The notes under the pieces were generated by a model. It was not told the origin of the DNA. It ran no database searches and worked only from the letters and a program-made list of their open reading frames with translations. This document shows positions 34,004 through 49,679 of a DNA stretch of 64,000 nt, one piece after another. Numbering within the stretch: position 1 is the first letter of the stretch; every line of letters begins with the position of its first letter. Source of the stretch: a virus; the IMG/VR virus record IMGVR_UViG_3300031227_000013, one strand, 5' to 3'. The translations under genes and the position numbers were made by a program.

Positions 34004-34020
34004 TTATTTATCCTGTAGTT

Positions 34021-34044
34021 AAAAAAGAGGATAGTTCCTCTTTT
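34021..34044 (-). terminator. Intrinsic terminator at the end of the paralog array
   Basis: AAAAGAGGA-ACTA-TCCTCTTTTTT followed by AACT. Confidence 0.75.
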
Positions 34045-34264
34045 AATATATTACGTAAAACCAGCCCGACTCTTCATCAAATATCAGGGCTACACATCCT
34101 GTATAAGACGATGCTTCTCCACGATTCTTTTTGTCATTAATATATGTAACTTCCATAGGTCTATTTATACAAGCTTCAGGATTATTAGATACATAATCTC
34201 CTACACTTATCTGTCCTTTATGTCTAACATGCTGCCCCATCTCATTATATAATGTACAATGCAT
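34043..34264 (-). CDS. GQL/GW family paralog
   Basis: YNEMGQHVRHKGQISVGD...SGWFY. Confidence 0.8.
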   Translation of the reverse strand: MHCTLYNEMGQHVRHKGQISVGDYVSNNPEACINRPMEVTYINDKKNRGEASSYTGCVALIFDEESGWFYVIY

Positions 34265-34276
34265 AATAGCTCCTGT

Positions 34277-34522
34277 TTAACATATTACAAAAAACCAGCC
34301 CCGCTCTTTAACGAATGTCAGAGGTATACTGGGTCCTCCCATAGTTGACACCGCTTGTCCAATTCCCTTCTTGTTATTAACATATGCAACTCGCATAGCT
34401 GTTACGAAAAGACCGGGATTATCAGATATTGTATCTCCTACACATATCTGGCCCCTGTGTCTAATAAGTTGTCTCGTCTCATTATATATATTAAATAGCA
34501 TAATAGCTCCTGTTATAAACAC
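34277..34522 (-). CDS. GQL/GW family paralog
   Basis: YNETRQLIRHRGQICVGD...RGWFF. Confidence 0.8.
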   Translation of the reverse strand: MFITGAIMLFNIYNETRQLIRHRGQICVGDTISDNPGLFVTAMRVAYVNNKKGIGQAVSTMGGPSIPLTFVKERGWFFVIC

Positions 34523-34540
34523 TATATATATAATATATAG

Positions 34541-34744
34541 TTACTTCTTAGTTTTCCATATCTTATTGACTTCTTTCTCTACAGCATGCTCTTCCAGCCC
34601 CACCTTACTCCAGCCCTTCTTGACTGTCCCTACTTTACTCCATCCCATAATAAAGGAATAGCCTATTGCCACAGACAGTAAGAAGATAGCGAGAGATAGG
34701 ATTATCCACGCTTTAGGGGGAACACTTTTAAAATCTATTTCCAT
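34541..34744 (-). CDS. Small single-pass membrane protein (not a family member)
   Basis: AWIILSLAIFLLSVAIGYSFIM TM segment; GWSKVG duplicated. Confidence 0.55.
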   Translation of the reverse strand: MEIDFKSVPPKAWIILSLAIFLLSVAIGYSFIMGWSKVGTVKKGWSKVGLEEHAVEKEVNKIWKTKK

Positions 34745-34827
34745 TGTATATTTCCTTTTTATATTATATAAATATACCCTTTGTAGTAACTTCTTTCAAA
34801 GATATTATGTTATCCGGGCTGTAAATA

Positions 34828-35043
34828 TTACTCCTGTCCTATATATCTCCAGCCCACTCTTTCTATAAACCTTATAAGATGTACACTGTGATCAGTGTCA
34901 TTCATATATTCAACTCCTCCTCTGTCTCCTGTTATCCGGACAACTTTGAGAGGAACACCGTAACACGTTACTTCATCTCCTACAACTAACTGACCTCTAT
35001 ATCTAATACATTGATTCATTTCATTAAACAGTTGACATGTCAT
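34828..35043 (-). CDS. GQL/GW family paralog
   Basis: FNEMNQCIRYRGQLVVGD...VGWRY; start placed at the ATGA overlap. Confidence 0.8.
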   Translation of the reverse strand: MTCQLFNEMNQCIRYRGQLVVGDEVTCYGVPLKVVRITGDRGGVEYMNDTDHSVHLIRFIERVGWRYIGQE

Positions 35044-35252
35044 GTCTTCCAGCACCAGCCCTTTCCTTCTATAAAATACATATGAAAGTTATATCCATTA
35101 CGGATATTTTTAATGTTACCTTTATCTTCTTTTAATCGGATAACTTTATAATCACATGTATTGTCTTCCTTAAAACGTATTATATCCCCCAGACAGATCT
35201 GTCCCTTATGTCTAACGGGCTGGTTCATTCTATTATACAGTACATATGTCAT
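35040..35252 (-). CDS. GQL/GW family paralog
   Basis: YNRMNQPVRHKGQICLGD...EGKGWCW. Confidence 0.8.
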   Translation of the reverse strand: MTYVLYNRMNQPVRHKGQICLGDIIRFKEDNTCDYKVIRLKEDKGNIKNIRNGYNFHMYFIEGKGWCWKT

Positions 35253-35461
35253 GTTCCATACCCCCAGCCCACTCCTTCTTTAAACTGTATACTATAAGCA
35301 TATTTGGAAAGTATATGTTTAATTTCACCTGTACATACCTTTAATGCGACTACTATGTAGTAATTGTCGGTGCCATCCTCAAAATGCACTAAATCCCCTT
35401 TACTGATCTGACCCTTGTGTTTAACGGGCTGTCCCAGTTCATTATGTATTAAGAACATCAT
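35249..35461 (-). CDS. GQL/GW family paralog
   Basis: HNELGQPVKHKGQISKGD...EGVGWGY. Confidence 0.8.
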   Translation of the reverse strand: MMFLIHNELGQPVKHKGQISKGDLVHFEDGTDNYYIVVALKVCTGEIKHILSKYAYSIQFKEGVGWGYGT

Positions 35462-35675
35462 ACTCTACTCCCCAGCCCCAGCCCGTTCCTTCTACAAACT
35501 GTATGAAGTAACAGTAGCTGGAATGCTTTAGTTTAATTTCAGCTATATTATCCTTTAATTGGATAACTCTAAACATACGGGTCCAATCGTCACTGAAATG
35601 CACTAAATCCCCTTTACTCAGTTGTCCTCTATGTTTAATGGGCTGCTTCATTGCATTATACAATACGTATGTCAT
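35442..35675 (-). CDS. GQL/GW family paralog
   Basis: YNAMKQPIKHRGQLSKGD...EGTGWGW. Confidence 0.8.
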   Translation of the reverse strand: MTYVLYNAMKQPIKHRGQLSKGDLVHFSDDWTRMFRVIQLKDNIAEIKLKHSSYCYFIQFVEGTGWGWGVEYDVLNT

Positions 35676-35901
35676 ATGACTCCCCCAAGAAGGACCACCA
35701 GCCCCAGCCCTTACCTTCTACAAAGTCTATATCCCATGTATCTTTATAGCGTTCAATTATGCCTATATCATCTTTTAGATTTATAACCTTATATATTATA
35801 TGTCCGCTGCTTATAAAATGTATCTTATCTCCTACACTAACCTGTCCCTTATATTTTATACGCTGTCCCATTTCATTGTACATCAAACTAAGTTTTCTCA
35901 T
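35656..35901 (-). CDS. GQL/GW family paralog
   Basis: YNEMGQRIKYKGQVSVGD...EGKGWGW. Confidence 0.8.
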   Translation of the reverse strand: MRKLSLMYNEMGQRIKYKGQVSVGDKIHFISSGHIIYKVINLKDDIGIIERYKDTWDIDFVEGKGWGWWSFLGESYDIRIV

Positions 35902-36119
35902 GTCGTTACCTCCACCCAGCCCGTTCCTTTTATATATCTAATACAGTAGTATACATTTTTATTCCGTGTGTTCTTAATCATACCTATGTTTTTCTTCAGT
36001 TCGATAACTTTATAATCACAGGCGTTGCTACTGGAAGTATAAGATACTATATCTCCTACACTGAGTTGCCCCTTGTAATTAATAGTCTGTCTCATCTCAT
36101 TGTATAGGCTGTATATCAT
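35898..36119 (-). CDS. GQL/GW family paralog
   Basis: YNEMRQTINYKGQLSVGD...KGTGWV. Confidence 0.8.
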   Translation of the reverse strand: MIYSLYNEMRQTINYKGQLSVGDIVSYTSSSNACDYKVIELKKNIGMIKNTRNKNVYYCIRYIKGTGWVEVTT

Positions 36120-36331
36120 ATTACATACCCCCAGCCCGTTCCTTCTACAAACTTTACATCAAATAAATCCCCGTGCATTATATGTTTAATTGTACCTGTA
36201 TTTCCTTTTAATTTAATAACTTTATAATCACCGAAACTGCTGTTATTAGTGAACCAGACTACATCTCCTACACAGAGCTGTCCTCTATACTTTATAATCT
36301 GTCCTAGTTTATTATGCATTTTAGATATCAT
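36116..36331 (-). CDS. GQL/GW family paralog
   Basis: HNKLGQIIKYRGQLCVGD...EGTGWGY. Confidence 0.8.
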   Translation of the reverse strand: MISKMHNKLGQIIKYRGQLCVGDVVWFTNNSSFGDYKVIKLKGNTGTIKHIMHGDLFDVKFVEGTGWGYVI

Positions 36332-36543
36332 CTCGTCACATACCCCCAGCCCACTTTTGTAAAGGATACAGGGAATTCATCCCCGAGCTCTGTATATTTA
36401 ACTATACCTGTATTTTCCTCTAATTTAATAACTTTATATCCCCCAAAGTCGTGGGTTTTAGCGAAATATATTATATCTCCCAGACAGAGTTGTCCCTTAT
36501 ACTTTATAGGTTGTCCCATTTCATTATACATTTTAGTTATCAT
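36328..36543 (-). CDS. GQL/GW family paralog
   Basis: YNEMGQPIKYKGQLCLGD...KVGWGY. Confidence 0.8.
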   Translation of the reverse strand: MITKMYNEMGQPIKYKGQLCLGDIIYFAKTHDFGGYKVIKLEENTGIVKYTELGDEFPVSFTKVGWGYVTR

Positions 36544-36779
36544 GCCCTCGATCCTCCTTCTGATTCCCAGCCCCAGCCCACTCCTTCTGTAAACTCTACA
36601 TGGTCGTAGTATCTATACTTATCCCACGCATGTTGAATTGTACAGAAGCTTCCCTTCAGGTCCATAACTATATAATTACTGGCTATGCCCCCATCAGTGA
36701 AGTGTACTATGTCTCCGTTACATAGTTGCCCTTTGTGTATAAGGGGCTGTTTTAATGCATTGTATAGTTTGTATATCAT
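36540..36779 (-). CDS. GQL/GW family paralog
   Basis: YNALKQPLIHKGQLCNGD...EGVGWGW. Confidence 0.8.
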   Translation of the reverse strand: MIYKLYNALKQPLIHKGQLCNGDIVHFTDGGIASNYIVMDLKGSFCTIQHAWDKYRYYDHVEFTEGVGWGWESEGGSRA

Positions 36780-36970
36780 GTCAATAACCAGCCCCTTTCT
36801 TCTGTAAACACTATAGGCATTATACCATATGTATATTTAATCCTACCTTCATTTCCCTTTAACTCAATAACAGGGTGCATACCTCCTTCAAGGCTAACTC
36901 TAACCTTATCTCCTTTACATATCTGTCCCTTGTATCTAATGGGCTGTTTTAACGCATTATATATTTTCAT
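36776..36970 (-). CDS. GQL/GW family paralog
   Basis: YNALKQPIRYKGQICKGD...EERGWL. Confidence 0.8.
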   Translation of the reverse strand: MKIYNALKQPIRYKGQICKGDKVRVSLEGGMHPVIELKGNEGRIKYTYGIMPIVFTEERGWLLT

Positions 36971-37164
36971 AAGAACATCCAGCCCCTTTCTTCTGTATAC
37001 CCCAGATTATATATATTGCTATGTAATCTGCTTTGTACTCTAGCTCTATTTCCTTTTATTCTAATAACTTTATAATTAAGACCGCTATCTGTTCCGGCGC
37101 GTATATAATCTCCTAAATCCAGCTGTCCTTTATACATTATACGTTGTCTCATATGATTATACAT
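36967..37164 (-). CDS. GQL/GW family paralog
   Basis: YNHMRQRIMYKGQLDLGD...EERGWMF. Confidence 0.8.
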   Translation of the reverse strand: MYNHMRQRIMYKGQLDLGDYIRAGTDSGLNYKVIRIKGNRARVQSRLHSNIYNLGYTEERGWMFL

Positions 37165-37379
37165 TATGCTTCTCCTCCCCAGCCCTGTCCTTCTACATAT
37201 TTTATATCACACGTATTGTGATCCATTATATGTTTAATTGTACCTGTATTATTATTTATGTTAGTTACCTCGTAATCAGGATAGTTCCAGTTTGCAGTAC
37301 CACTTACCTTATCTCCTACACTGACCTGTCCCTTATGTATTATCTGCTGTCTATTTCTATTGTATAGTCTAAAGCTCAT
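37164..37379 (-). CDS. GQL/GW family paralog
   Basis: YNRNRQQIIHKGQVSVGD...EGQGWG. Confidence 0.8.
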   Translation of the reverse strand: MSFRLYNRNRQQIIHKGQVSVGDKVSGTANWNYPDYEVTNINNNTGTIKHIMDHNTCDIKYVEGQGWGGEA

Positions 37380-37575
37380 ACTGTCACCCAGCCCCTTCTT
37401 TCTATATATATTATAGGGTATATACTAAGCCTGTTAAGAAATTTAAGTCTACCTGTGTTCCCTTTAACTCAATAACTTTATGGGGGCAGCTACAGACGTA
37501 TACTGTATCTCCTACATCTAACTGCCCTTTGTGTTTAACGATCTGTCCTATCTCATTGTATATTCTATACATCAT
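37376..37575 (-). pseudogene. Frameshifted GQL/GW paralog (1-nt deletion)
   Basis: MMYRIYNEIGQIVKHKGQLDVGD...ELKG, then the -1 frame continues NTGRLKFLNRLSIYPIIYIERRGWVTV to a TGA overlapping the next ATG. Confidence 0.75.
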
Positions 37576-37576
37576 A

Positions 37577-37780
37577 TCACCAGACCCAGCCCCTTCCTTT
37601 TATAAACCTTATTCGGCGTACAACAGTACTGTTTAGGGATTTAGCTCTACCTACATATTTCCATATTCTATATACCTCGTAACGATCTTCGCCCCCACGG
37701 TTAAAATGTATCATATCTCCTTCACACAGCTGTCCCTTGTGTATAATGGGCTGTTCCAGTTCATTAAGTATATTACTTAT
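37577..37780 (-). pseudogene. GQL/GW paralog lacking a canonical start (ATA at the expected position)
   Basis: Open frame ISNILNELEQPIIHKGQLCEGD...KGRGWVW; no upstream in-frame ATG/GTG before a TAG. Confidence 0.65.
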
Positions 37781-37979
37781 AGTAACACCAGCCCTTTCCT
37801 TCTATAAACATTATAGGGTGTTTACTCCCTATATTCAATACAAGAATCCTCCCTGCGTCTTCTCTAATATTCAGTACTTTTAAACTTATACCAGCCGGGC
37901 TGGTATATACTTTATCTCCTACACAGAGCTGTCCCCTATATATAATAGGTTGTTGCATTTCGTTATATAATGTAGTCAT
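37773..37979 (-). CDS. GQL/GW family paralog
   Basis: YNEMQQPIIYRGQLCVGD...EGKGWCY. Confidence 0.8.
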   Translation of the reverse strand: MTTLYNEMQQPIIYRGQLCVGDKVYTSPAGISLKVLNIREDAGRILVLNIGSKHPIMFIEGKGWCYYK

Positions 37980-38242
37980 CGTATACCCCAGACCTTTCTT
38001 TCTTTTTTAAGGATAAAATAAGGATAGTAATACGGGACTTGAGCCCCGTGATCCAGCATAAATCCCTGGTCATCTCTGTCTATACATATTTTATAGACTT
38101 TACTTACATGTTGCTTCATACCACCTACAAACATATTGTTCCAGCCCTTCTCGAAGCTCTCGCAGTCTCCTGTAACCAATACAGAGTCTCCTACCTTCAG
38201 TCCGGACGCTTTGTGTCCTTTCAGATATTCTTCTTTACTCAT
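37976..38242 (-). CDS. Hypothetical protein (not a family member; GLKVGDSV motif)
   Basis: 88 aa ORF coupled to both neighbours by ATGA overlaps. Confidence 0.6.
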   Translation of the reverse strand: MSKEEYLKGHKASGLKVGDSVLVTGDCESFEKGWNNMFVGGMKQHVSKVYKICIDRDDQGFMLDHGAQVPYYYPYFILKKERKVWGIR

Positions 38243-38487
38243 ATTGTATACTCCCTTCTATATTCCCATATCCAGCCCCTTCCTCTTATAAAGAATATAG
38301 GTATTGTGTAGGCTGTGTTATTATACTGCAGATTTGCCTTAATCCCTTTTATACTCTTTATTTTAGCCGGGAGTATATCAGCCCTCCCCACAGACCATCT
38401 TTTTCTATATACAGAGTCACCATTATTCAGCTGCCCTTTATATAGTATGGGCTGTCCATTTATATTATGTAAAACTCCCTGTTCCAT
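38239..38487 (-). CDS. GQL/GW family paralog
   Basis: HNINGQPILYKGQLNNGD...RGRGWIW. Confidence 0.8.
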   Translation of the reverse strand: MEQGVLHNINGQPILYKGQLNNGDSVYRKRWSVGRADILPAKIKSIKGIKANLQYNNTAYTIPIFFIRGRGWIWEYRREYTI

Positions 38488-38518
38488 TAGTAGTCTCCTT
38501 TACTGTTGTATAGTAGTA

Positions 38519-38716
38519 TCAATAGGATGTTTGTATATACCAGCCCAACCCTTTTTTATATATTATAGGGTTTTTATCGGGACCTACATCCAGTATGATT
38601 AATGTACCTGTATCTCCCTTTAATGAGATAACTGTAAAGGTTATATTCCCCCACAGGGTAACACTCACTTCATCCCCTACACTTAACTGCCCTTTGTGTT
38701 TAACGGGCTGTCCCAT
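38519..38716 (-). CDS. GQL/GW family paralog (frame extends upstream to ATA at 38743)
   Basis: (ISEYILHNK)MGQPVKHKGQLSVGD...KGLGWY. Confidence 0.7.
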   Translation of the reverse strand: MGQPVKHKGQLSVGDEVSVTLWGNITFTVISLKGDTGTLIILDVGPDKNPIIYKKGLGWYIQTSY

Positions 38717-38739
38717 CTTGTTATGTAATATGTATTCAC

Positions 38740-38964
38740 TTATAATTCGTGTATTAATAGCCAGCCCATCCCTTTTTCATGCTTTATAGTATATACCACG
38801 AAACTTAATTTATGTTCGACTATACCTCTATCTCCTTGCAGCCCAACGACTTCGAAAAAGAAATCCCTTCCAGGAGTTAAACTTACCATATCTCCCAGAC
38901 TAAGCTGTCCCTTATATACAATAGGCTGTTCCATCCCATTGTATAACATATGTCGTGTCCTCAT
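38740..38964 (-). CDS. GQL/GW family paralog
   Basis: YNGMEQPIVYKGQLSLGD...KGMGWL. Confidence 0.8.
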   Translation of the reverse strand: MRTRHMLYNGMEQPIVYKGQLSLGDMVSLTPGRDFFFEVVGLQGDRGIVEHKLSFVVYTIKHEKGMGWLLIHEL

Positions 38965-39176
38965 ACAGACACCCAGACCCAGCCCGTTCCTTCTTTAAAC
39001 TTTATTGTATGTACATCCCTATCCCAGGCATGTGTAATCTTACCTGTGTCTTCCTCTAGTTCTATTACTAAGTAATGGAAAGATCTAGTGGGATGAAGTA
39101 ATACTGTATCCGCTCTACTGAGCTGCCCCTTATATTTAATGGGCTGCTCTAACTTATTATATAATACCCTACTCAT
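38961..39176 (-). CDS. GQL/GW family paralog
   Basis: YNKLEQPIKYKGQLSRAD...EGTGWVW. Confidence 0.8.
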   Translation of the reverse strand: MSRVLYNKLEQPIKYKGQLSRADTVLLHPTRSFHYLVIELEEDTGKITHAWDRDVHTIKFKEGTGWVWVSV

Positions 39177-39177
39177 A

Positions 39178-39384
39178 CTAATATACCCAGCCCTTCCCTT
39201 TTATATATTTTATATTATATGTATTTGACGGGTTATGGTTGAATATAAGTTTACCTGTATCCCCTTCTACTTCTAACACTTCAAGATCAGTGCTATGGCA
39301 TCTTACTTCATCTCCTTTACAGAGCTGTCCCCTATACTTTATAACCTGCCCTAACTTATTAAACAACATATATTCTCTTCTCAT
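39178..39384 (-). CDS. GQL/GW family paralog
   Basis: FNKLGQVIKYRGQLCKGD...KGKGWVY; start placed at the ATGA overlap. Confidence 0.8.
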   Translation of the reverse strand: MRREYMLFNKLGQVIKYRGQLCKGDEVRCHSTDLEVLEVEGDTGKLIFNHNPSNTYNIKYIKGKGWVY

Positions 39385-39593
39385 ATCGACCTCCAAAACC
39401 AACCATGCCCTTTTCTATACCTTATAGTATAGTTTAAAGGGCGATAAAGATTTTTAATTTTAGCTGTATCTCCTTCCAGCTCAACGACTTTGTAAGAAAC
39501 AGTACTGGTAGATCTAAGGTATATCTTATCCCCTTTATTTAACTGCCCCCTGTGTTTAATGGGCTGTCCTATTAGATTAAATAACGGATGCAT
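39381..39593 (-). CDS. GQL/GW family paralog
   Basis: FNLIGQPIKHRGQLNKGD...KGHGWFW. Confidence 0.8.
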   Translation of the reverse strand: MHPLFNLIGQPIKHRGQLNKGDKIYLRSTSTVSYKVVELEGDTAKIKNLYRPLNYTIRYRKGHGWFWRSI

Positions 39594-39793
39594 CACCAGC
39601 GCCAACCATTTCCTTTTGTATACATCACAACATATATACTACCTGTACGAACTTTTTTAATCCTAGCGATGTTCCCTGCTATTTTAAGCACTGTGTAGAT
39701 GTTCCTACCATTCGGGTAGGCCCTTACTTTGTCCCTTACATTAAGCTGTCCCTTATGTTTAATCTGCTGTCCCATTTCATTGTATAATCTCAT
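39593..39793 (-). CDS. GQL/GW family paralog
   Basis: YNEMGQQIKHKGQLNVRD...KGNGWRW. Confidence 0.8.
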   Translation of the reverse strand: MRLYNEMGQQIKHKGQLNVRDKVRAYPNGRNIYTVLKIAGNIARIKKVRTGSIYVVMYTKGNGWRW

Positions 39794-39794
39794 A

Positions 39795-40016
39795 CTACCA
39801 GCACCAGCCCTTCCCGTCTACGTATAGTGTAAAATACTTACTACCTGTTTTGGGCTTTATCATTACACCTCGTTTGTTTCTTAGTTTTTTAATAACAGCT
39901 CTATTATTTACATCGTAGACGTGTAGACGTATTTGATCCCCTATGTTTAGCTGTCCTTTATGTCTAAGGGGCTGTCCATTTATATTATGTAATATAGTAC
40001 CTCCAAAAGCAGCCAT
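39795..40016 (-). CDS. GQL/GW family paralog
   Basis: HNINGQPLRHKGQLNIGD...DGKGWCW. Confidence 0.8.
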   Translation of the reverse strand: MAAFGGTILHNINGQPLRHKGQLNIGDQIRLHVYDVNNRAVIKKLRNKRGVMIKPKTGSKYFTLYVDGKGWCW

Positions 40017-40057
40017 ATTTATTCTCCTTTCCTGAATTTTCTACCATGGTAGACTTT

Positions 40058-40284
40058 TCATATGTTAGTACTTACTATCCAGCCTTCGTCTTCAAAGTGT
40101 ATCTCGTGCTCACGCTTTGTGATAGAAGTCTGAACTATACCTATGCTACCCTCCAGATGAATTACCTTCATTACATACCATCTCTCCATAAAAACACTTT
40201 GTATATATATATATCATCACCAGCTAACAGCTGTCCTTTATGTGTGATAGGTTGTTTCATCGTATTATGTGCCATATATCGCAT
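40058..40284 (-). pseudogene. GQL/GW paralog frameshifted within a (TA)6 microsatellite
   Basis: MRYMAHNTMKQPITHKGQLLAGDD then a premature TAA; removing one TA unit at 40202-40214 restores a 74 aa ORF ending HFEDEGWIVSTNI. Confidence 0.75.
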
Positions 40285-40486
40285 GTATTAACCAGCCCCT
40301 TCCTTCTTTAAACTGTATCGGGTACATGTAAGGCTTTTTAATGTTATGTTCAGCTGTGCCTGTACTTCCCCTTACTTTAACAACTGTGTAATAGAAAACT
40401 GACTTGGGAACAGTCCTTACTATATCTCCTTTACTGAGTTGTCCCTTATACTTTATGCGCTGTCCCATTTCATTAAATAATCTCAT
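40265..40486 (-). CDS. GQL/GW family paralog
   Basis: FNEMGQRIKYKGQLSKGD...EGRGWL. Confidence 0.8.
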   Translation of the reverse strand: MRLFNEMGQRIKYKGQLSKGDIVRTVPKSVFYYTVVKVRGSTGTAEHNIKKPYMYPIQFKEGRGWLIHAIYGT

Positions 40487-40487
40487 A

Positions 40488-40688
40488 CTACCACACCCAG
40501 CCCCTTCCTTTTTTAAACGCTATAGGAAATACACCCATAGAATATTTAACAGAACCTATATCTCCGTTTAGTTCGATAACTTTGAGACAAGCCCTACCAT
40601 AGCTGGTATCACTTATCATATCCCCTTTATTTAATTGACCTTTATGTATAATGGGCTGTCCTAATTTATTATATATAAAATGTCTCAT
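40488..40688 (-). CDS. GQL/GW family paralog
   Basis: YNKLGQPIIHKGQLNKGD...KGRGWVW. Confidence 0.8.
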   Translation of the reverse strand: MRHFIYNKLGQPIIHKGQLNKGDMISDTSYGRACLKVIELNGDIGSVKYSMGVFPIAFKKGRGWVW

Positions 40689-40689
40689 A

Positions 40690-40890
40690 CTACCACACCC
40701 AGCCCCTTCCTTTTATAAACTGTATCGGGTACCTGCTATACTCTCGGCAGCTCTCCACCCTACCTTCGGTTCCTTTTAATTTGACAACTATGTAGTAGTT
40801 AGTTCTCAGAGGACCGGTCTTTACTGTATCTCCCAGACAGAGCTGTCCCTTATGTATTATGTGCTGTCCCATTTCATTAAATAATCTCAT
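40690..40890 (-). CDS. GQL/GW family paralog
   Basis: FNEMGQHIIHKGQLCLGD...KGRGWVW. Confidence 0.8.
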   Translation of the reverse strand: MRLFNEMGQHIIHKGQLCLGDTVKTGPLRTNYYIVVKLKGTEGRVESCREYSRYPIQFIKGRGWVW

Positions 40891-41096
40891 GCTAACAAGA
40901 ACCAACCCTTCCCTTTTTTAAACTCTATAATATATGTAAGCCTACCATTATGATGTGAGTATCCAACTCTGCCCATATCTCCCTTTAGTTCGATAACTTT
41001 AAAATAAGTAACACTGCATATTACAGTATCTCCTTTACTAACCTGTCCCTTATGTTTTATATGCTGTCCCATTTCATTCTTCAGAATAAATCTCAT
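40887..41096 (-). CDS. GQL/GW family paralog
   Basis: KNEMGQHIKHKGQVSKGD...KGKGWF. Confidence 0.8.
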   Translation of the reverse strand: MRFILKNEMGQHIKHKGQVSKGDTVICSVTYFKVIELKGDMGRVGYSHHNGRLTYIIEFKKGKGWFLLA

Positions 41097-41097
41097 A

Positions 41098-41531: not shown

Positions 41532-41544
41532 TCATCCCTCCTAG

Positions 41545-41921: not shown

Positions 41922-41952
41922 TTTCCCTCCTTAAACCTTTCTTTTGTTGATT

Positions 41953-42324: not shown

Positions 42325-42348
42325 ACTCCTTTGTTAGTTTCTATTTCA

Positions 42349-42558: not shown

Positions 42559-42776
42559 TATACGGAGGCTGGATTAAGTAGCCAGCCCTTCCCTTTTATA
42601 AACTTTATAAGATATACATAATTCTGAGTTCTTGCTTTTCCTGTATTTTCTTCAATATATGTTATATTCAGGACATTTCTTGATCTCAATGTTACACGAT
42701 CTCCTATACTAAGTTGTCCTTTATGCTTTATCTTCTGATCCATCTTATTATATAAATTATATGTATATGCTGCCAT
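42558..42776 (-). CDS. GQL/GW family paralog
   Basis: YNKMDQKIKHKGQLSIGD...KGKGWL. Confidence 0.8.
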   Translation of the reverse strand: MAAYTYNLYNKMDQKIKHKGQLSIGDRVTLRSRNVLNITYIEENTGKARTQNYVYLIKFIKGKGWLLNPASV

Positions 42777-43028
42777 TTAATTAGCCTCCTCCTCTACTAA
42801 AATATCCTCCAAATAATCTTTGACTCCCCAGCACCAGCCCTTTCCTTCTATAAACCATATAGGGATCTTACTTGTTCCGGTAGTCATAACTCCGGTATTT
42901 CCGTTGAGGTTAGTAATAGTTCTTTCTATCCGTACCAGCCCTTCAGCATATCGATATACAATATCTCTTAAAACCAACTGCCCCCTATACATTATAGGTT
43001 GCTGCATTTTATTATATATGTTATTCAT
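42777..43028 (-). CDS. GQL/GW family paralog
   Basis: YNKMQQPIMYRGQLVLRD...EGKGWCW. Confidence 0.8.
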   Translation of the reverse strand: MNNIYNKMQQPIMYRGQLVLRDIVYRYAEGLVRIERTITNLNGNTGVMTTGTSKIPIWFIEGKGWCWGVKDYLEDILVEEEAN

Positions 43029-43243
43029 TATATGGAACTGGGGTTAAGTAACCAGCCCGTTCCTTCTATAAACTTTATAGAGTATGAATGCCAATCGGAG
43101 CTTACTGTCCCGTTATTCCCTTCAATACGTAGTACATTCAGCTCAGTTTCTTTTACCATTATATTATCTCCTACACTAAGCTGTCCTCTATGCTTTATAT
43201 CCTGCTTCATTTTATTAAATAAGGTGTATGTGTACCCTGCCAT
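43028..43243 (-). CDS. GQL/GW family paralog
   Basis: FNKMKQDIKHRGQLSVGD...EGTGWL. Confidence 0.8.
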   Translation of the reverse strand: MAGYTYTLFNKMKQDIKHRGQLSVGDNIMVKETELNVLRIEGNNGTVSSDWHSYSIKFIEGTGWLLNPSSI

Positions 43244-43307
43244 TTAATTAGTCTCCTTCTGTGCTTGTAGTTATAATAAAGAGAGGGCTGCTAACCCTCT
43301 CTCTCCA

Positions 43308-43802
43308 TCATTCATTACATATTATTATTATTCCTATAGCCCCGCAGAAAAGCATTACTAAAGTGCCCCATCCGAATATCGCGAACAGCGCATTAAACGG
43401 ATATACACTTATTCCTTCGGGAACTAATACGCTTTTCTCCCCCTTGGAATACATTATACTCCCCCTTAATTTTAGCAACACGCTGCTTTTTGTCAGCATA
43501 TTCGCATCTTTAGGCATCTTCTTAAGCTCCTCTTTGGCCGCTAATATATTCGTGTACCAGAACTGAATATCCTCAGAAGGGTCCTCAAATGTTATAGAGG
43601 TATACCCGTTGGTAAGTTCATTGTCTTTAAGATATTTAAGGGCTATCTCCAGCTCCTGTACAGCTAAAGGTACTGTGGTAGCGTCTGAGGCTCTTTTTAG
43701 ATGTCCTTCACAAGCTATCTTAAAATTAGCGGATTTTGTCGTTCTTATAACAACCCATAATAGAAACGGAGCTATTAACATCAGACACAATACTACTTTC
43801 AT
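43308..43802 (-). CDS. Two-TM membrane protein
   Basis: Hydrophobic N- and C-terminal segments. Confidence 0.6.
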   Translation of the reverse strand: MKVVLCLMLIAPFLLWVVIRTTKSANFKIACEGHLKRASDATTVPLAVQELEIALKYLKDNELTNGYTSITFEDPSEDIQFWYTNILAAKEELKKMPKDANMLTKSSVLLKLRGSIMYSKGEKSVLVPEGISVYPFNALFAIFGWGTLVMLFCGAIGIIIICNE

Positions 43803-43867
43803 ACTTACTCTCCTAGTTTGTTTGGGTTTACTCCATTTTCTACCATGGTAGACTTTTTACTTCTAGA

Positions 43868-44143
43868 CTATGCAACTTCTTTAACAAGACATTCCAGTAC
43901 TCCGGGAGCACAACTGCATCCCCCTGTATGACACTCTGTTACTATGTACTCTTCACCATCTTCAGATTTTTCAATATCATAATGAAGGAGTTCATCATCA
44001 AGAGTATCTTCTTCAATACCGTTCCAACAGGATATCATTTCTTCGGGGCATTCTAGAAATTTCCAGTCAATATTTTGATCCGCAACATCTCCACGATCTA
44101 CGGCACGTAATATTTTGTTTACGAATTCTTTGTTTTTCTGCAT
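43868..44143 (-). CDS. Acidic hypothetical protein
   Basis: 91 aa ORF with AAAGGA RBS. Confidence 0.55.
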   Translation of the reverse strand: MQKNKEFVNKILRAVDRGDVADQNIDWKFLECPEEMISCWNGIEEDTLDDELLHYDIEKSEDGEEYIVTECHTGGCSCAPGVLECLVKEVA

Positions 44144-44159
44144 GATATGTTCCTTTAGT

Positions 44160-45398
44160 TTAGTTTGTTTTTAGAAAACCTAATGTCGTCATGTTCGCAT
44201 GACGCATTCCTTCGTAATTCTGATCCATTATAGTACAGCTGTTATCCGGAGCTAATACTTTGTTCAGCTTAGTTCCGTGTCTCGCTTTATTATTCAGAGT
44301 TATAAATACTAATCCGTCTTTCTCCGTATTATCAACCAACTTATTTATAGCGTCCCATCTCCTTTGTATTAAAGGTCCGTTATAGTCTAAGTGGCTGACT
44401 CTGAACTTGTTATGTATTTCTCCATCAAGAATAAGCTTATCGACATCTCCCTTTAAAAGAGGCATATCCATTCCCATATTCTTCTTAATTAAATGTTGTA
44501 GTATACGATACTGCATCTGATACAACTCAACACCTAAGCTATTTTCTATATCTATATTAAAGGCTTTCGATATACGTAGCAGTTCTCTGCCGTTTCCCGG
44601 AAGCGATAGGAAGTTGAAATCATTTCCCACATATTTACCGATAATATCAAACATCATCTCTGTCACATTCTCTTTACCGGGAGTAGAATACCTGTCATTA
44701 TCCTCGAGGAGAGTATTATATTTCTTGTTACTCCCACGGGAAGCTTTAAGGTCTATATAACATTTCCATGGACAGCCTTGTCCATTAACTACATGATTAT
44801 ATACGTCTTTAGTGAAAACAGTTTTACATTCATTACATATAATATCTGACAAAAAAACCCTATAGTTACCATACTTGTTCTTTGACGTTATACGTTTACA
44901 AATGGAATAATCATAATTAGTACCATTTATTTTTAAACCTTTCCTAATAATACTAAGTATTTTTGGCTTTCCCTCATTATCATAGCATACATGTGGACAA
45001 CCCTGCCCTTGTAAATGATTATCGGGTTTTTGTTTAAAAATATTTTCACATTCATTACATATTATTAAAATCTTTTTATGAATGCCTTTATATTTAGCTT
45101 TAGAATAACTATAATTATTACCATGTACTTTGAAACACCTGTTACGAAATTCTTCTTCAGTAAACCTAGTGCTCTTTGCCCAGCATCTTTTAGGACATCC
45201 ACCTGCAGAATTCATCAAATGGTTTTTAGGAGATAGTAGGAATTCTGTATGGCATTTATTACATATTATAAGTATTTTGGTAATCCTGTTTATATAAACC
45301 ATTCTTGAATAATTAAACTTATTGCCGTGTTTTTTTATAAAATCAGCTGTTGCCTGTTCTTGTGTTTTAGGCTTTGGACCTTTTCTCTTTTTAACCAT
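44160..45398 (-). CDS. Triple Zn-ribbon repeat protein (homing-endonuclease-type DNA-binding repeats) with a methyltransferase-like Rossmann C-terminus
   Basis: 3x (HG..Y.YS...IICNxC..F....NH..G.GCP); C-terminal FLSLPGNG...LGVE...KGDV...HLDYNG. Confidence 0.5.
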   Translation of the reverse strand: MVKKRKGPKPKTQEQATADFIKKHGNKFNYSRMVYINRITKILIICNKCHTEFLLSPKNHLMNSAGGCPKRCWAKSTRFTEEEFRNRCFKVHGNNYSYSKAKYKGIHKKILIICNECENIFKQKPDNHLQGQGCPHVCYDNEGKPKILSIIRKGLKINGTNYDYSICKRITSKNKYGNYRVFLSDIICNECKTVFTKDVYNHVVNGQGCPWKCYIDLKASRGSNKKYNTLLEDNDRYSTPGKENVTEMMFDIIGKYVGNDFNFLSLPGNGRELLRISKAFNIDIENSLGVELYQMQYRILQHLIKKNMGMDMPLLKGDVDKLILDGEIHNKFRVSHLDYNGPLIQRRWDAINKLVDNTEKDGLVFITLNNKARHGTKLNKVLAPDNSCTIMDQNYEGMRHANMTTLGFLKTN

Positions 45399-45415
45399 AA
45401 TTTTCCTTCATAATA

Positions 45416-45443
45416 AAAGGGAGTGTACTTGTTGTACACTCCC
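45416..45443 (-). terminator. Hairpin/terminator between the radical SAM and Zn-ribbon genes
   Basis: GGGAGTGTAC-AACAA-GTACACTCCC followed by TTTT. Confidence 0.6.
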
Positions 45444-45455
45444 AGCCCTTTTAAA

Positions 45456-46286
45456 CTATATATCCAATCCCCGCTCTTTCAGGGGCTCCAGCCCCAGTAA
45501 AGGCCTCAGATCGGAAGCCCATCTTATTTTTTTGTCCTTCCCGTACTTAGCATACAATTCTTTAATCCTGTCTTCATCCTTTTCAGTCAGCAATTCATTC
45601 ATCCTGTCCATATATGTAGCATCATTGTCCGTGTTGCGTTTTATACGGACTTCGGGATGACGTATTACCCCTATCCATATGTCTCTTGATGTTATGTTAC
45701 GGACATCTCTGACAACTGCTTCGATATTATTGTCGAGCATTGGAATCGTAGACACACTTGTATGAAATCCAGCTCCTGTCATATAGGTAAGACACGCTAT
45801 CCGTTCTTCATATTCAGGTGCTCCGGGTTCCCAGAAGTCCAGAATACTCTGGTCCTTAGAACCTATTGTAACTCTGATCTCGATATTTTTTTGATAGTCC
45901 CTCAGCCTATCAATTACTTTACGGGTACACCCAAGATTAGGCTTAGTCACCAGAAGAATCTTAGCTACAGCCTTACGCTCCATTATCTTCTTAATCACCT
46001 CAATACTGTAATCAATAGTGTTCTCTGTTATATCGTGAGTGTTAGGGAACATTATTGTTGCTGGCTTACCTATAAGTTTTATTTTTCCCGGGGCCAGTTC
46101 TGATAATATACTGGACATTTTACGGGGTGTCGGTATATACTTATTTTTACTATTTATCTGTTTTAACTGTAATTTACGACAACTTGCATAACAATATCTG
46201 CAACCATATTCGCATCCATTGAATGCTCCCATGTTAATATGACTCCACATATTAGCTCCAGCAGGTGTTCGTTTTACTTTTTCCAA
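45456..46286 (-). CDS. Radical SAM protein (spore photoproduct lyase-like/DUF5131-like)
   Basis: GCEYGCRYCYA CxxxCxxC motif; LLVTKP; FWEPGAPEYEERI. Confidence 0.8.
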   Translation of the reverse strand: MEKVKRTPAGANMWSHINMGAFNGCEYGCRYCYASCRKLQLKQINSKNKYIPTPRKMSSILSELAPGKIKLIGKPATIMFPNTHDITENTIDYSIEVIKKIMERKAVAKILLVTKPNLGCTRKVIDRLRDYQKNIEIRVTIGSKDQSILDFWEPGAPEYEERIACLTYMTGAGFHTSVSTIPMLDNNIEAVVRDVRNITSRDIWIGVIRHPEVRIKRNTDNDATYMDRMNELLTEKDEDRIKELYAKYGKDKKIRWASDLRPLLGLEPLKERGLDI

Positions 46287-46330
46287 AATGTAATACTCCT
46301 GTTAAATTTAGTTTCTATGATGAATCTGCT

Positions 46331-46573
46331 CTATCCAGAACTCTGACTGTCCCATTCCCAACCTCTATCTTTATTAAAGTATATTTTATATTTTGTAGGA
46401 TTTGTGATTCTACCGGTGTAACATATTACACCGATCCTGCCCTTAAGCTCTATTACCTTAAAATCCGGAGTTCCTCCGGGGCAACAGCTCACCTCATCCC
46501 CCATAGTCAGCTGTCCTTTATATTTAATGTATTGTCCCTTATAATTATGTAAAGAATTTAAACTCTTACTCAT
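46331..46573 (-). CDS. GQL/GW family paralog
   Basis: HNYKGQYIKYKGQLTMGD...DRGWEW. Confidence 0.8.
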   Translation of the reverse strand: MSKSLNSLHNYKGQYIKYKGQLTMGDEVSCCPGGTPDFKVIELKGRIGVICYTGRITNPTKYKIYFNKDRGWEWDSQSSG

Positions 46574-46584
46574 ATCTCCTCCCT

Positions 46585-46830
46585 TTATTCATACGAATAA
46601 CCTTCGTGATCCGTCCAGCGCCAGCCCTCTTCTTTTGTAAATGTAATATCATTCACATCGGTAGCGTCTACTTTGTTTTCCACTGTTCCCTTATTCTTAT
46701 TAATAGATCTTATAATCCCATGAAACATCGTAGACGGAGGAGGTGAATAATATATCTCATCCCCCACACTTATCTGACCCCTGTGTCTAAGGGGCTGTCC
46801 CAGCATATTGTATAACCGTTTTTTAGACAT
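46585..46830 (-). CDS. GQL/GW family paralog
   Basis: YNMLGQPLRHRGQISVGD...EEGWRW. Confidence 0.8.
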   Translation of the reverse strand: MSKKRLYNMLGQPLRHRGQISVGDEIYYSPPPSTMFHGIIRSINKNKGTVENKVDATDVNDITFTKEEGWRWTDHEGYSYE

Positions 46831-46844
46831 AATACCCCTTTCTA

Positions 46845-47234
46845 TTAAATAACTCTGAATACATTATTTAGTATCCACCATATCTTCTTACCTGTATAAG
46901 CCATCCAGCCCGTTCCCTCAATATACTTTAGACTATACGTATTAGCATTTCGTATTGCTATTCCTTTACTACCTTTTATACTGAATACGAACACCGTATA
47001 GTCATAGGGGGAGTAACCATATCTTACCTCATCCCCTTTAACCAGTTGCCCTTTATACTTTATAACTTGTCCTTTTTCATTAAATATATTACACATTCTC
47101 GCGTTAAAGACGTTAGTTATAGAATCCCGAACAAACTCCTCAACCACTAAAGCCAAAACACTTACACTGAATATAAGTGCAGGTAATATATAAAGACCTG
47201 TTCTAAGTAATAGAATTCGTTCTTCCAGACACAT
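46845..47234 (-). CDS. GQL/GW family paralog with a possible N-terminal TM extension
   Basis: Hydrophobic N-terminus, then FNEKGQVIKYKGQLVKGD...EGTGWM; alternative start at 47096. Confidence 0.7.
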   Translation of the reverse strand: MCLEERILLLRTGLYILPALIFSVSVLALVVEEFVRDSITNVFNARMCNIFNEKGQVIKYKGQLVKGDEVRYGYSPYDYTVFVFSIKGSKGIAIRNANTYSLKYIEGTGWMAYTGKKIWWILNNVFRVI

Positions 47235-47269
47235 TGGGATTCCCCCCTTTCTCTTAATTTAATATATGA

Positions 47270-47467
47270 CTATTGAAATTCGAAACGCCGGGGACATTTA
47301 CCCGATCTGTTCATCCTTCTGCTTATACATCTTCCACAGAATATTCTCTTACGCACCAGACGTTTAAAGGCTTCTTCCGTCAAGCTGTTACTCACCCGTA
47401 TATTTCTATAACATTTATCGCAGTGTATTTGTACCCCTGAAAATTTTCTTGCTAACATCTTAAACAC
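47270..47467 (-). CDS. Small basic Zn-finger protein
   Basis: HCDKC...FCGRC. Confidence 0.55.
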   Translation of the reverse strand: MFKMLARKFSGVQIHCDKCYRNIRVSNSLTEEAFKRLVRKRIFCGRCISRRMNRSGKCPRRFEFQ

Positions 47468-48061
47468 TCACCTTTCTGTATCCTGTATATAGTATTCTCT
47501 TGTACCCCTCAGCTGTTCTGCATTATAAAACTCTCCCGACTGTCTATTGTAGAATGTATTGAGTATCTCAGGAGTAAAGCGGTATGTCTCCGGAGTAGTG
47601 TGGTATGTGGCAGGGATATTCATAGCAGCCATCATCTGATCTTGAGCGTGCTGTAAATACCACGCCAGACCATCTTTATACACCCAGCCCTTCCCGTCTA
47701 TAAACTCCAGATCACGCTTAATTCCTAGGAAGTTTTCCACTATCGTACAGTTATCTTTACATTCAATAACTATATACCTATCAATATCTTCTGAATTAAA
47801 ATATATAGTATCTCCTTTATTTAACTGTCCCTTATGTATAATTGGCTGCTTCATTTCATTATATACTTTCGTATATGTATAGTTCACAACGCTTACACAA
47901 TTAGTCTCCTCCGGCGTACTATTAGAAACACACTCTATGTGTCCCTGCTGATTTCCCAGAATTATAAAATTAATAATGCACCTCCATAATACTACTACTG
48001 AAGAAATCAAGATCAGAGCAGTTATTATAACTATTAATATATCTATTATCATTATATACAT
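47468..48061 (-). CDS. GQL/GW family domain fused to an N-terminal TM anchor and a C-terminal extension
   Basis: Strongly hydrophobic N-terminus; YNEMKQPIIHKGQLNKGD...DGKGWVY. Confidence 0.75.
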   Translation of the reverse strand: MYIMIIDILIVIITALILISSVVVLWRCIINFIILGNQQGHIECVSNSTPEETNCVSVVNYTYTKVYNEMKQPIIHKGQLNKGDTIYFNSEDIDRYIVIECKDNCTIVENFLGIKRDLEFIDGKGWVYKDGLAWYLQHAQDQMMAAMNIPATYHTTPETYRFTPEILNTFYNRQSGEFYNAEQLRGTREYYIQDTER

Positions 48062-48073
48062 TATAACTCCTTA

Positions 48074-48352
48074 TTAAAATCTAAATGTGACTGTGTCTAT
48101 GTTCATTGTTGTTCCATTAAGAGTCAGGCTCGGTGCACTCCAGTAACGGGAACCTGTATTCCTCCAGCCTTTCCCTTCTATAAATGTTATATCACGTTTA
48201 AACCCTACGAAGCTTTTTATTACTCCAGAGCCATCTTTACATTCGGTAACCTTATAAGGGGCACCTCCTGCCTCTATGTATACTATATCTCCTTTACATA
48301 TCTGCCCCTTGTGTTTAATGGGCTGCTTCATTTCATTATATATTATACTCAT
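48074..48352 (-). CDS. GQL/GW family paralog
   Basis: YNEMKQPIKHKGQICKGD...EGKGWR. Confidence 0.8.
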   Translation of the reverse strand: MSIIYNEMKQPIKHKGQICKGDIVYIEAGGAPYKVTECKDGSGVIKSFVGFKRDITFIEGKGWRNTGSRYWSAPSLTLNGTTMNIDTVTFRF

Positions 48353-48355
48353 TAG

Positions 48356-48574
48356 CTATCTCCGTTTAGTCCACGTCCAGCCATAATCTTTTACGAACTT
48401 TATATCATACACTATACCTTTAGGACTTATGACTTCACCTATGTCCCCCTTAAGGAGACGTATTCTTCTTTTACATGACATATGTCTACCTTTGTAAACT
48501 ACATCTCCTTTACATAGTTGCCCTTTATGCACTATCCTCTGCTTATTTTCATTATACAGATCTCCAGTACTCAT
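48356..48574 (-). CDS. GQL/GW family paralog
   Basis: YNENKQRIVHKGQLCKGD...YGWTW. Confidence 0.8.
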   Translation of the reverse strand: MSTGDLYNENKQRIVHKGQLCKGDVVYKGRHMSCKRRIRLLKGDIGEVISPKGIVYDIKFVKDYGWTWTKRR

Positions 48575-48849
48575 TAGTCCTCCTCCGAAGAAGACGACTC
48601 AGAAGAGGAAGAGGACATATCATAGTAAAAACTATAAGTAAGTTCCCAAACCCATCCGGACGTATCGAAAAAGTTCAAGACATATTCGGAACCTCCTCTA
48701 TCTCTACCGTTTCCATAAGCGCCGTTCAATCCATATACAACTATACTATTCCGTCGACGTATATCTGTGTCCAGGTATGCCATATCATCCACACTTAGCT
48801 GTCCTTTATACCTTATTTTCTTACCCAGTCTATTATATAAATTATTCAT
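48574..48849 (-). CDS. GQL/GW family paralog with Ser/Glu tail
   Basis: YNRLGKKIRYKGQLSVDD...SGWVW...SSSSSESSSSEED. Confidence 0.8.
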   Translation of the reverse strand: MNNLYNRLGKKIRYKGQLSVDDMAYLDTDIRRRNSIVVYGLNGAYGNGRDRGGSEYVLNFFDTSGWVWELTYSFYYDMSSSSSESSSSEED

Positions 48850-48885
48850 ACTTTCCTTTGTTTATAACAGTTAAAATTATATGTA

Positions 48886-49233
48886 TCATCTTCTCCCCCA
48901 TGTAGCCTGAACTTGCGGAGGAGGTGTATATCTGCGAGTTCCTGCTGACGCTTCATCGTCAGCAAGCCAGTAGGAACCATATGTGGCATCATATGTGCCA
49001 AACTCTCTTATTTCTTCATAAGGTGATAGAGTGGACCACTCCCAGCCATTATTTTTATCAAAGCTGAGATTATATATTTTTGTGTCCCTTTTAGCCCGCC
49101 CTAGCTTACCTATAACTTTTGTAACCATCAGAGGGAAACTGCTTGCCTCTTTATATACCGCATCTCCCACAGTCAGCTGCCCCCTATACTTTATAGGCTG
49201 CCTTAATCTATTATATAATTTTCCAGTATCCAT
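48886..49233 (-). CDS. GQL/GW family paralog with C-terminal extension
   Basis: YNRLRQPIKYRGQLTVGD...NGWEW. Confidence 0.8.
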   Translation of the reverse strand: MDTGKLYNRLRQPIKYRGQLTVGDAVYKEASSFPLMVTKVIGKLGRAKRDTKIYNLSFDKNNGWEWSTLSPYEEIREFGTYDATYGSYWLADDEASAGTRRYTPPPQVQATWGRR

Positions 49234-49246
49234 ATATTATCCTTTA

Positions 49247-49477
49247 TTAGTGACACGCTATTACCCAGCCCGTTCCTTCTATAAACCGTATATCATGTTC
49301 ACCGTAGTCCTCATCGATATCCCTTACAGTACCTTGATTCTCCTGCATCTTCTGTACGTCGAACTCACAGGGATCTCCTGTACCGCAACCAGTACATAAT
49401 ACCTCGTCCTTCTCATTCAATTGCCCTTTATACTTTATGGGCTGATGCATTCTGTTACTTAAAAGATAATTAGACAT
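49247..49477 (-). CDS. GQL/GW family paralog
   Basis: SNRMHQPIKYKGQLNEKD...EGTGWV. Confidence 0.8.
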   Translation of the reverse strand: MSNYLLSNRMHQPIKYKGQLNEKDEVLCTGCGTGDPCEFDVQKMQENQGTVRDIDEDYGEHDIRFIEGTGWVIACH

Positions 49478-49679
49478 TGTTGTAAGGACACCCCCCTTTA
49501 AATACCCAGCCCTCTCCTTTTCTAAATATTATAGGGTAGTGGAACATATTACCTGTATCTCCCTTTATTGTTACCTTATTAAAATGACACGCATGCTCTT
49601 CACACCTACAATTTACTTTATCCCCTGTGTTCAACTGCCCCTTGTGTTTAAGTAGTTGATTCAGATTATTTCTTAGCAT
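49470..49679 (-). CDS. GQL/GW family paralog (first gene of the array)
   Basis: RNNLNQLLKHKGQLNTGD...KGEGWVF; AGGAG RBS. Confidence 0.8.
   Translation of the reverse strand: MLRNNLNQLLKHKGQLNTGDKVNCRCEEHACHFNKVTIKGDTGNMFHYPIIFRKGEGWVFKGGCPYNNV

Follow-up and report, generated by a model that had tools for sequence, protein, structure and literature searches.

Large sets of paralogs characterise the arms races between hosts and their eukaryotic viruses or pathogens, but they have hardly been described in phages. The expansions of large eukaryotic DNA viruses include the ankyrin/PRANC families and "genomic accordions" of poxviruses as well as the ankyrin, BTB and F-box families of mimiviruses and pandoraviruses. 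Here we analyse a tandem array of 46 small paralogous genes in the IMG/VR virus record IMGVR_UViG_3300031227_000013, located between positions 34043 and 49679 of a stretch of 64,000 nucleotides (nt) that is referred to as the window throughout. The array resembles the eukaryotic-virus expansions in the tandem, lineage-specific growth of one small interaction domain and in the deep divergence between the copies, but it is built on another domain, concerns another host kingdom and exhibits no recent amplification (maximum identity 55%).

A literature search for a phage precedent of such arrays returned nothing relevant. The closest published case is the group of the T4 early proteins GoF, MotB.1 and Frd.2, a family with an "LSm-like fold" (Kim et al. 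2025, PMC12152347), which is like the array in kind and unrelated in sequence. In both cases, the products are small accessory proteins of phages for which a small beta-barrel is predicted, the genome carries several paralogs, and the function is largely unknown. However, the T4 proteins are longer (119-141 amino acids, aa) with extra C-terminal parts, and their three members form no tandem array, whereas the family presented here numbers 49 copies with a length of about 70 aa, and 46 of these are arranged in tandem. GoF and MotB.1 were rejected as relatives based on hhalign probabilities of 0.09% and 0.13%, respectively.

The array and its genome

The source genome, 185,256 bp in length and bounded by direct terminal repeats (DTR), is recorded as complete. 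Its genes include those for a multisubunit RNA polymerase of two chains, a portal protein and NAMPT. Its nearest cultured relatives, the Vibrio phages D69, D181 and D148 and the Salmonella phage Arash, are distant (portal identity ~28-32%), and the region around the head module of D69 shows no synteny with the source genome. The listing of open reading frames (ORFs) and a hidden Markov model (HMM) built from the copies, repeated with a second profile, yielded 48 matches that correspond to 46 family genes on the minus strand. This agrees in number and coordinates with the first-pass annotation, whose three apparently broken copies and two additional copies at 12.2-13.0 kb were likewise recovered. 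Intact genes account for 43 of the 46 (64-197 aa, median 73), two are split by frameshifts and a third has no canonical start codon (Table 1). A further copy is located beyond the window (G000:C1:21666-21866), giving a family total of 49 (46 in the array and three elsewhere) that occupies ~6.6% of the genome. Assuming ~300 genes, which is an estimate, about one gene in six belongs to this single orphan family. The N-terminal motif, written as a degenerate DNA pattern, has 39 matches compared with 0.00 expected.

The interval of 15.6 kb had been described as dominated by the family. This holds for ~11.0 kb, but the remaining ~4.6 kb contain 11 unrelated genes. The chaining of the genes by stop/start overlaps was confirmed by counting: an overlap of -4 (ATGA) is found eight times, -1 four times and +1 five times, and the others range from -13 to -31. 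Purine runs resembling Shine-Dalgarno (SD) sequences precede 37 of 43 copies compared with 32% of random sites. The frequent stop/start overlaps of 4 nt or 1 nt fit translational coupling.

Sequence conservation and selection

Our comparison of the copies showed domain identities of 17-55% with a mean of 35%, which are unevenly distributed along the protein. The ends are conserved (51%) and the middle is variable (20%), in accordance with the constant scaffold and free middle part proposed by the first-pass annotation, and its terminal motifs were also retrieved: G17, Q18, D23, G66 and W67 are invariant, and N7 and Q11 are conserved in at least 90%. The codons of the invariant residues vary. 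Glutamine columns use CAG 33 times and CAA 10 times, i.e. at background frequencies (77:23), and the invariant Gly17 is encoded by all four codons (GGA 24, GGG 14, GGT 4, GGC 1). Synonymous codons are thus randomised at invariant residues, which is indicative of an old divergence and of a constraint that acts on the protein. The paralogs are saturated at synonymous sites, and near-identical copies are absent from the genome. Stop codons occur off-frame with a frequency of 0.11 per codon, so that a frame of 70 codons is open by chance with a probability of ~2e-4; 43 open frames can therefore not be the result of drift. Each copy is under purifying selection at the protein level. The similarity of neighbouring copies slightly exceeds that of random pairs (0.388 vs 0.349; 0 of 5000 permutations).

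The copies differ in charge and in domain make-up. The isoelectric points (pI) range from 4.1 to 10.9 with a median of 9.3; 25 of 43 copies lie above 8 and seven below 6. A membrane anchor is found in two copies and a fused Cys-rich domain in one, and several copies are tailed. Low-complexity C-terminal tails rich in Ser/Asp/Glu or Thr/Asn/Tyr are present in several copies as well as in neighbouring genes in the relatives (48574-48849; L005 1056-1307; L010 2795-3034; G000:C1:21666-22050).

The "conserved protein motif" is partly conserved as DNA or RNA. Gly66 is encoded by GGC in 38 of 44 copies (GGT 5, GGA 1, GGG 0), a codon that contributes 11% of glycine codons in the background. The codon before Gly66 has G as its last base in 36 of 44 copies, and threonine at this position is always ACG (8% of threonine codons in the background). 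For Pro12, the codon CCC is used by 17 of 24 copies, compared with a background of 17%. This results in two words that are reverse complements of each other: GGGCTG(G), which encodes x-Gly-Trp and occurs 47 times, and CAGCCC, which encodes Gln-Pro and occurs 20 times. In predicted foldings they pair across the gene junction and enclose stop codon, SD and start codon, with a pairing probability of at least 0.74 at eight of the 12 junctions that have both words (e.g. 35222-35270 and 36946-36985). These complementary rare-codon words, newly noticed here, may pair across the junctions. Hypothetically, their conservation could reflect a translational-coupling hairpin, a recombination motif or the avoidance of G-runs. 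Covariation of the junction hairpin was rejected, since genes with CAA at Q11 still face GGC without compensatory change.

Predicted fold

The AlphaFold2 model calculated from an alignment of 41 sequences is confident (predicted local distance difference test score, pLDDT, 91.9; predicted template modelling score, pTM, 0.79), and an Atlas model of a different copy reached a pTM of 0.73. The AlphaFold2 model comprises six strands, a short N-terminal strand followed by five barrel strands, and residues 5-23 form a conserved, irregular and confidently modelled segment. The predicted fold class is a KOW/SH3/Tudor-type small beta-barrel, five-stranded, highly bent and antiparallel, of ~50-60 residues. 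The variable parts of the model are the loop behind the first barrel strand (27-35), the K-G-x-x-G hairpin (43-46) and the next loop (51-55), and alternating strand positions remain hydrophobic across the copies.

Foldseek searches against PDB and BFVD returned nothing at E 1e-3 or better. Exhaustive structural alignment with VIA-align produced a flat list of matches (Z 4-5.4; root-mean-square deviation 2.2-2.8 A; 49-54 residues aligned) that contains the RapA N-domain, EF-P/eIF5A domain I, HEX-1, the TraI translocation-signal domain, SAWADEE, Tudor, PWWP and KOW. The small KOW/SH3-like barrel that had been guessed from the sequence is thus in line with the model and with these PDB matches. 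No specific structural relative stands out, and the model is best assigned to the generic class of SH3-like small barrels. The family has this fold class, according to the model, as well as strand/turn motifs of the GDxV and GxxGxV type in common with EF-P/eIF5A domain I, the KOW domains of NusG/Spt5 and the Tudor-like barrels of RapA, CarD, Mfd and UvrD. In contrast to barrels of the EF-P/NusG/RapA type, it alone has a conserved N-terminal wrap of 20 residues and a C-terminal GxGW.

At the sequence level, no KOW (PF00467 and relatives), SH3 or Tudor model of Pfam was matched; the best result of the scan of 41 members was a single weak match of one copy to KOW4_SPT5 (E 0.054; 13.8 bits compared with a cut-off of 27). 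The SH3b/GW models SH3_3 and SH3_8 were equally unproductive, with no SH3 family at E up to 1 among the 41 members, and the Mind bomb SH3 repeat (PF18346, SH3_15) is absent from the Pfam matches at E up to 1. The SH3_3-like repeat protein P0065 touches the family profile at E 8e-4 over the C-terminal half only, which we regard as a resemblance and not as membership.

Rarity and relatives of the family

A profile search of 1.84 billion representative proteins retrieved 65 matches: 37 copies from the source genome itself, four near-identical strain variants, ~17 true relatives and seven cases of repeat-protein noise. Pfam, PHROG and NCBIfam gave no recurrent match for single copies or across the 41 aligned members, and a search of the PDB sequences with the family profile was empty at E up to 10, which bears out the earlier statement that this is not a described family. 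Cultured phages had no match to the array (megablast) or to one copy (tblastn). Arash and D69 lack any profile match, although the same profile detects 51 in the source genome. IMG/VR locus searches with single family proteins found nothing, and the motif DNA pattern is present on no other IMG/VR contig and on one JGI contig of 1.3 kb. Judged by these searches, the family is an orphan that is nearly confined to the source genome. Two proposed relationships were rejected. KilR, the FtsZ inhibitor of the Rac prophage, had an Atlas feature score of 0.81 as a lead and reached an hhalign probability of 0.36%; the precomputed "weak" flag of one copy for DUF7205 (PF23835) was reproduced neither by hmmscan (E up to 10) nor by the genome search (E up to 1).

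The true relatives originate from few metagenomes and are again arranged in tandem. One example is the contig L005 with seven tandem copies that are followed by a homologue of the zinc-finger gene of the window; L004 and L010 contain two to four copies. In the weakly resolved domain tree (69 columns) most window copies group together, as do most copies of L005 and L010, thus suggesting lineage-specific expansion. A "long-form" subfamily joins the outlier copies of the window with proteins from elsewhere; the latter measure 139-212 aa and are extended at the N-terminus and tailed by Thr/Asn/Ser-rich sequence. Contig L006 (ENA ERZ27316532 k141_1485036) is a 12-kb fragment of a diverged relative with a portal-sized gene of 629 aa, a DUF5661 gene, a Gly-zipper gene and two methyltransferases; its long-form family member of 212 aa is located on the opposite strand.

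Strain variation

Other assemblies of the source phage are 99.7-100% identical. Samples in which the phage is present include ENA ERZ27316532, ERZ27316125 and ERZ27315837 as well as JGI 3300025698. In the assembly L016, seven of the eight differences fall inside 29 nt of the gene 36967-37164 and result in R35E, N39D, R40N, R42K and Q44R in the hairpin, none of them silent, and the eighth, P28R, affects the variable loop encoded by the adjacent gene. L015 exhibits L41R in the hairpin of another copy and one silent change. Altogether, nine of ten single-nucleotide polymorphisms (SNPs) among the strains are nonsynonymous, which is suggestive and not significant. A different kind of change is found in L017, where ~25 nt are replaced precisely between the conserved C-terminal and N-terminal blocks of neighbouring genes, thereby rewriting the end of one gene and the start of the next. 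The differences of L018 are homopolymer indels and were dismissed as probable sequencing error. Array and non-array regions contain 21 and one differing positions, respectively; the contigs were found via variant array proteins, so the densities are not comparable.

The strain pattern fits diversifying change in the hairpin together with recombination at the junctions; the numbers are small. A diversity-generating retroelement was rejected as the source, since the complete genome lacks an RVT_1 match that control genomes possess. Intragenomic gene conversion was also rejected as the origin of the hairpin patch because no donor copy exists in the genome.

Functional interpretation

The gene family, its predicted fold class, the purifying selection on each copy, the rarity, the tandem relatives and the strain variation of hairpin and junctions are the established ground on which a functional interpretation can be built. 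The reading that we favour, with a probability of roughly 45%, is that the array encodes a set of binding modules that act within the cell, share an unchanging small-barrel scaffold and serve as accessory factors in counter-defence or host control. In this view, an ancient multigene family that is kept by selection supplies stand-alone barrels of the SH3/KOW/Tudor type, which would be produced in the host during infection. Three conserved parts would make up their constant scaffold, namely the N-terminal wrap (L-Y-N-x-M-x-Q-P-I-x-H/Y-K/R-G-Q-L-x-x-G-D-x-V), the strand residues that point inwards and the G-x-G-W at the C-terminus, and the loop behind the first barrel strand, the K-G-x-x-G hairpin and the following loop would be free to vary, so that each copy would display a different surface and charge (pI 4.1-10.9). 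Different copies may be aimed at different host or competitor ligands. Most of them would be translated in chains via stop/start overlap, and the family could grow and reshuffle through recombination in the conserved gene junctions of ~100 nt.

Several observations weigh against this reading. The invariant residues are largely polar (N7, Q11, Q18, D23 and K/R16) and could form a common functional site instead of a scaffold. Strong variability of the loops is also expected from relaxed constraint, and the conservation of the ends is partly nucleotide-level (GGGCTGG, CAGCCC), thus not wholly a protein signal. The strain SNPs are few, and the variant contigs are biased by their discovery through variant array proteins. 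Finally, the phage is uncultured, and binding, the ligands and the timing of expression are inferred.

A more elaborate version is a germline-encoded library of SH3-like binders in which each copy neutralises a different host defence or competitor protein, with selection on one hairpin that keeps the library diverse, reshuffling by recombination at the conserved junctions and expression as a stoichiometric set via GGGCUG/CAGCCC hairpins that enforce translational coupling. We consider this version doubtful; if true, it would be the phage counterpart of immune-receptor or effector repertoires. Should the copies bind, they would represent a natural library of scaffolds with ~70 residues from which new activities in counter-defence or host control could be drawn. 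The phage is environmentally common, and the index of the assembly collection lists one of its non-array proteins in 67 blocks.

Among the rival explanations, the one that survives best proposes that the copies modulate the nucleic-acid machinery by binding RNA, the ribosome or RNA polymerase, with the polar N-terminal segment as common contact and the variable parts tuning specificity or strength. The top structural matches bind RNA polymerase or the ribosome (RapA N-domain, Z 5.4; EF-P/eIF5A domain I, 5.0-5.3; Spt5 KOW, CarD and the C-terminal Tudor domain of UvrD, ~4), but Z values of ~5 in a flat list may reflect merely a common arrangement. The variable hairpin appears to be situated roughly at the position of the EF-P/eIF5A functional loop, as judged solely from the first and last aligned residues. 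The predominantly basic character of the copies is compatible with such a role, with the seven acidic copies as counterexamples. A phage precedent is provided by the LSm-like early proteins GoF, MotB.1 and Frd.2 of T4, which are tied to mRNA stability (PMC12152347), but the hhalign probabilities of ~0.1% for GoF and MotB.1 document the lack of a sequence relation. Moreover, 46 variants for one conserved machine are hard to explain, and we rate this explanation as unlikely.

A second rival regards the copies as adaptors. The constant N-terminal motif and GW would dock on one phage partner, such as ubiquitin-like conjugation enzymes or a protease, and the variable face would recruit targets, comparable to the F-box, BTB and ankyrin expansions of large eukaryotic viruses. 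The invariant polar residues within the irregular, confidently modelled segment would be suitable for docking, and the source genome encodes an E1. However, E1 is also present in Arash and D69, where the family is absent. The ubiquitin-like (Ubl) system does accordingly not need the family, and the co-occurrence of the two was rejected. H15 and K/R16 are furthermore not kept in the long-form relatives, which leaves the adaptor explanation with a low probability. The location of the array adjacent to the head module, of two outliers inside it (12212-13015) beside the RNA polymerase gene and of long-form relatives near portal-module genes (L006) would be in agreement with virion-associated or ejected proteins, i.e. 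head cargo or decoration that is delivered into the cell. This third rival is improbable: the array copies lack the N-terminal leader common to the neighbouring cargo candidates, two copies are membrane-anchored, and it would be unusual for a virion to carry 46 different cargo proteins at low copy. A selfish or neutral expansion by unequal crossing-over, with drifting copies devoid of individual function, would account for the conserved junction repeats, the weak similarity of neighbours, the three broken copies and the interstrain junction replacement, but it is very improbable and disfavoured given 43 intact frames of 46 at a mean identity of 35% (chance of an open frame ~2e-4), motif residues that stay invariant while their codons vary, and the lack of copies above 55% identity.

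Regulatory signals

The first-pass annotation had placed the array between one promoter and one terminator. The single promoter was not corroborated, as sigma-70-like sites occur at chance level (75 vs 66 +/- 8) and the site at 49777-49750 is weak (9/12 match). A terminator-like hairpin is present at the proposed end, but internal ones also exist (Table 1). The genome furthermore contains 11 copies of TCTACCATGGTAGA, a perfect 14-bp palindrome, all of them intergenic: four in the window (631, 21859, 40040 and 43839) and seven outside. Wherever a next gene start is visible, the palindrome lies shortly upstream of it on the coding strand, usually with the flanks AAAAG...AAAAT, and it is a candidate for a phage promoter or operator class. 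Because of the internal terminator-like hairpins and the two genome-wide palindrome copies inside the region, the array region probably comprises several regulatory units.

Shortly before the first array gene lies a GC-rich stretch of ~270 nt (49775-50045, minus strand) that appears in the ORF listing with 86 aa but resembles a structured RNA that ends in a stem and U-run (minimum free energy -88.9 compared with -77.2 for shuffled sequences, z -2.5). It has no Rfam or tRNA match, and the Rfam and tRNA scans across the array region were also empty.

Other features of the region

The localization of all features is compiled in Table 1.

Table 1. Features of the array region and outlying family copies in the window (w/o, without).
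Position	Strand	Feature	Evidence
12212..12679	-	outlier copy; family domain (residues ~105-155) fused to Cys-rich repeat N-domain	HMM, E ~1e-10
12695..13015	-	outlier copy, 107 aa, "long-form" subfamily	HMM, E ~1e-10
34015..34040	-	terminator-like hairpin and T-run past last copy	read from sequence
34043..49679	-	whole array region; 46 family genes (~11.0 kb) and 11 unrelated genes	ORF listing, HMM
34043..34522	-	family copies 1-2 (73 and 81 aa)	HMM, E 1e-19 to 1e-18
34541..34744	-	non-family predicted membrane protein, 67 aa; no Pfam match	ORF sequence
34828..37379	-	twelve contiguous family copies, mostly 4-nt overlaps (ATGA)	HMM
36967..37164	-	family copy with strain-variable hairpin (codons 35-44; 7 nt / 5 aa differ in L016)	strain comparison
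~37379..37599	-	frameshifted family copy; N-half and C-half in different frames	HMM
37580..37801	-	full-length family frame w/o ATG/GTG/TTG before motif (non-canonical start, or dead)	HMM
37773..37979	-	family copy; P28R in sister strain L016	HMM
37976..38242	-	non-family gene, 88 aa, with GDxV-like segment	hhalign probability 2.9%
38239..40016	-	eight family copies	HMM
40040..40053	.	palindrome TCTACCATGGTAGA, 24 nt before start of gene 39795-40016	genome-wide pattern count
~40061..40287	-	second frameshifted family copy	HMM
40265..41531	-	six family copies; junction 40471-40493 replaced in sister assembly L017	HMM, strain comparison
41545..42324	-	three non-family ORFs (63, 62 and 123 aa; the 123-aa one with N-terminal hydrophobic helix)	ORF listing
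42349..43243	-	four family copies; duplicated two-gene unit, ~78% DNA identity between units	sequence comparison
43244..43307		internal hairpin-plus-T-run site	sequence
43308..46286	-	four-gene non-family insert (164-aa membrane protein; 91 aa; 412 aa; 276 aa)	family searches
43839..43852	.	palindrome TCTACCATGGTAGA, upstream of gene 43308-43802	genome-wide pattern count
45419..45443	-	strong internal terminator-like hairpin and T-run	sequence
46331..47234	-	three family copies; 46845-47234 with N-terminal transmembrane helix	HMM
47270..47467	-	zinc-finger protein, 65 aa; homologue follows tandem copies in relative contig L005	family searches
47468..49679	-	seven family copies; 47468-48061 with N-terminal transmembrane helix and 65-aa C-terminal extension	HMM

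The four-gene insert looks like a mobile or independently acquired cassette. Its 412-aa protein is treble-clef zinc-ribbon or endonuclease-like (DUF4379 and PHROG endonuclease families; DUF723 solely in precomputed matches), and its 276-aa protein is a radical-SAM enzyme of the SplB/DUF5131-like type. An association of the family with radical-SAM enzymes was rejected, since the neighbour in the relatives is of the small NrdG/QueE-like activase type. The interrupting gene of 88 aa was also rejected as a divergent family member based on its low hhalign probability. The N-terminal 90 residues of the outlier copy 12212-12679 form a CxxCxxC-type repeat (PHROG 15341), whose homologues are found only in Campylobacter CP220-like phages.

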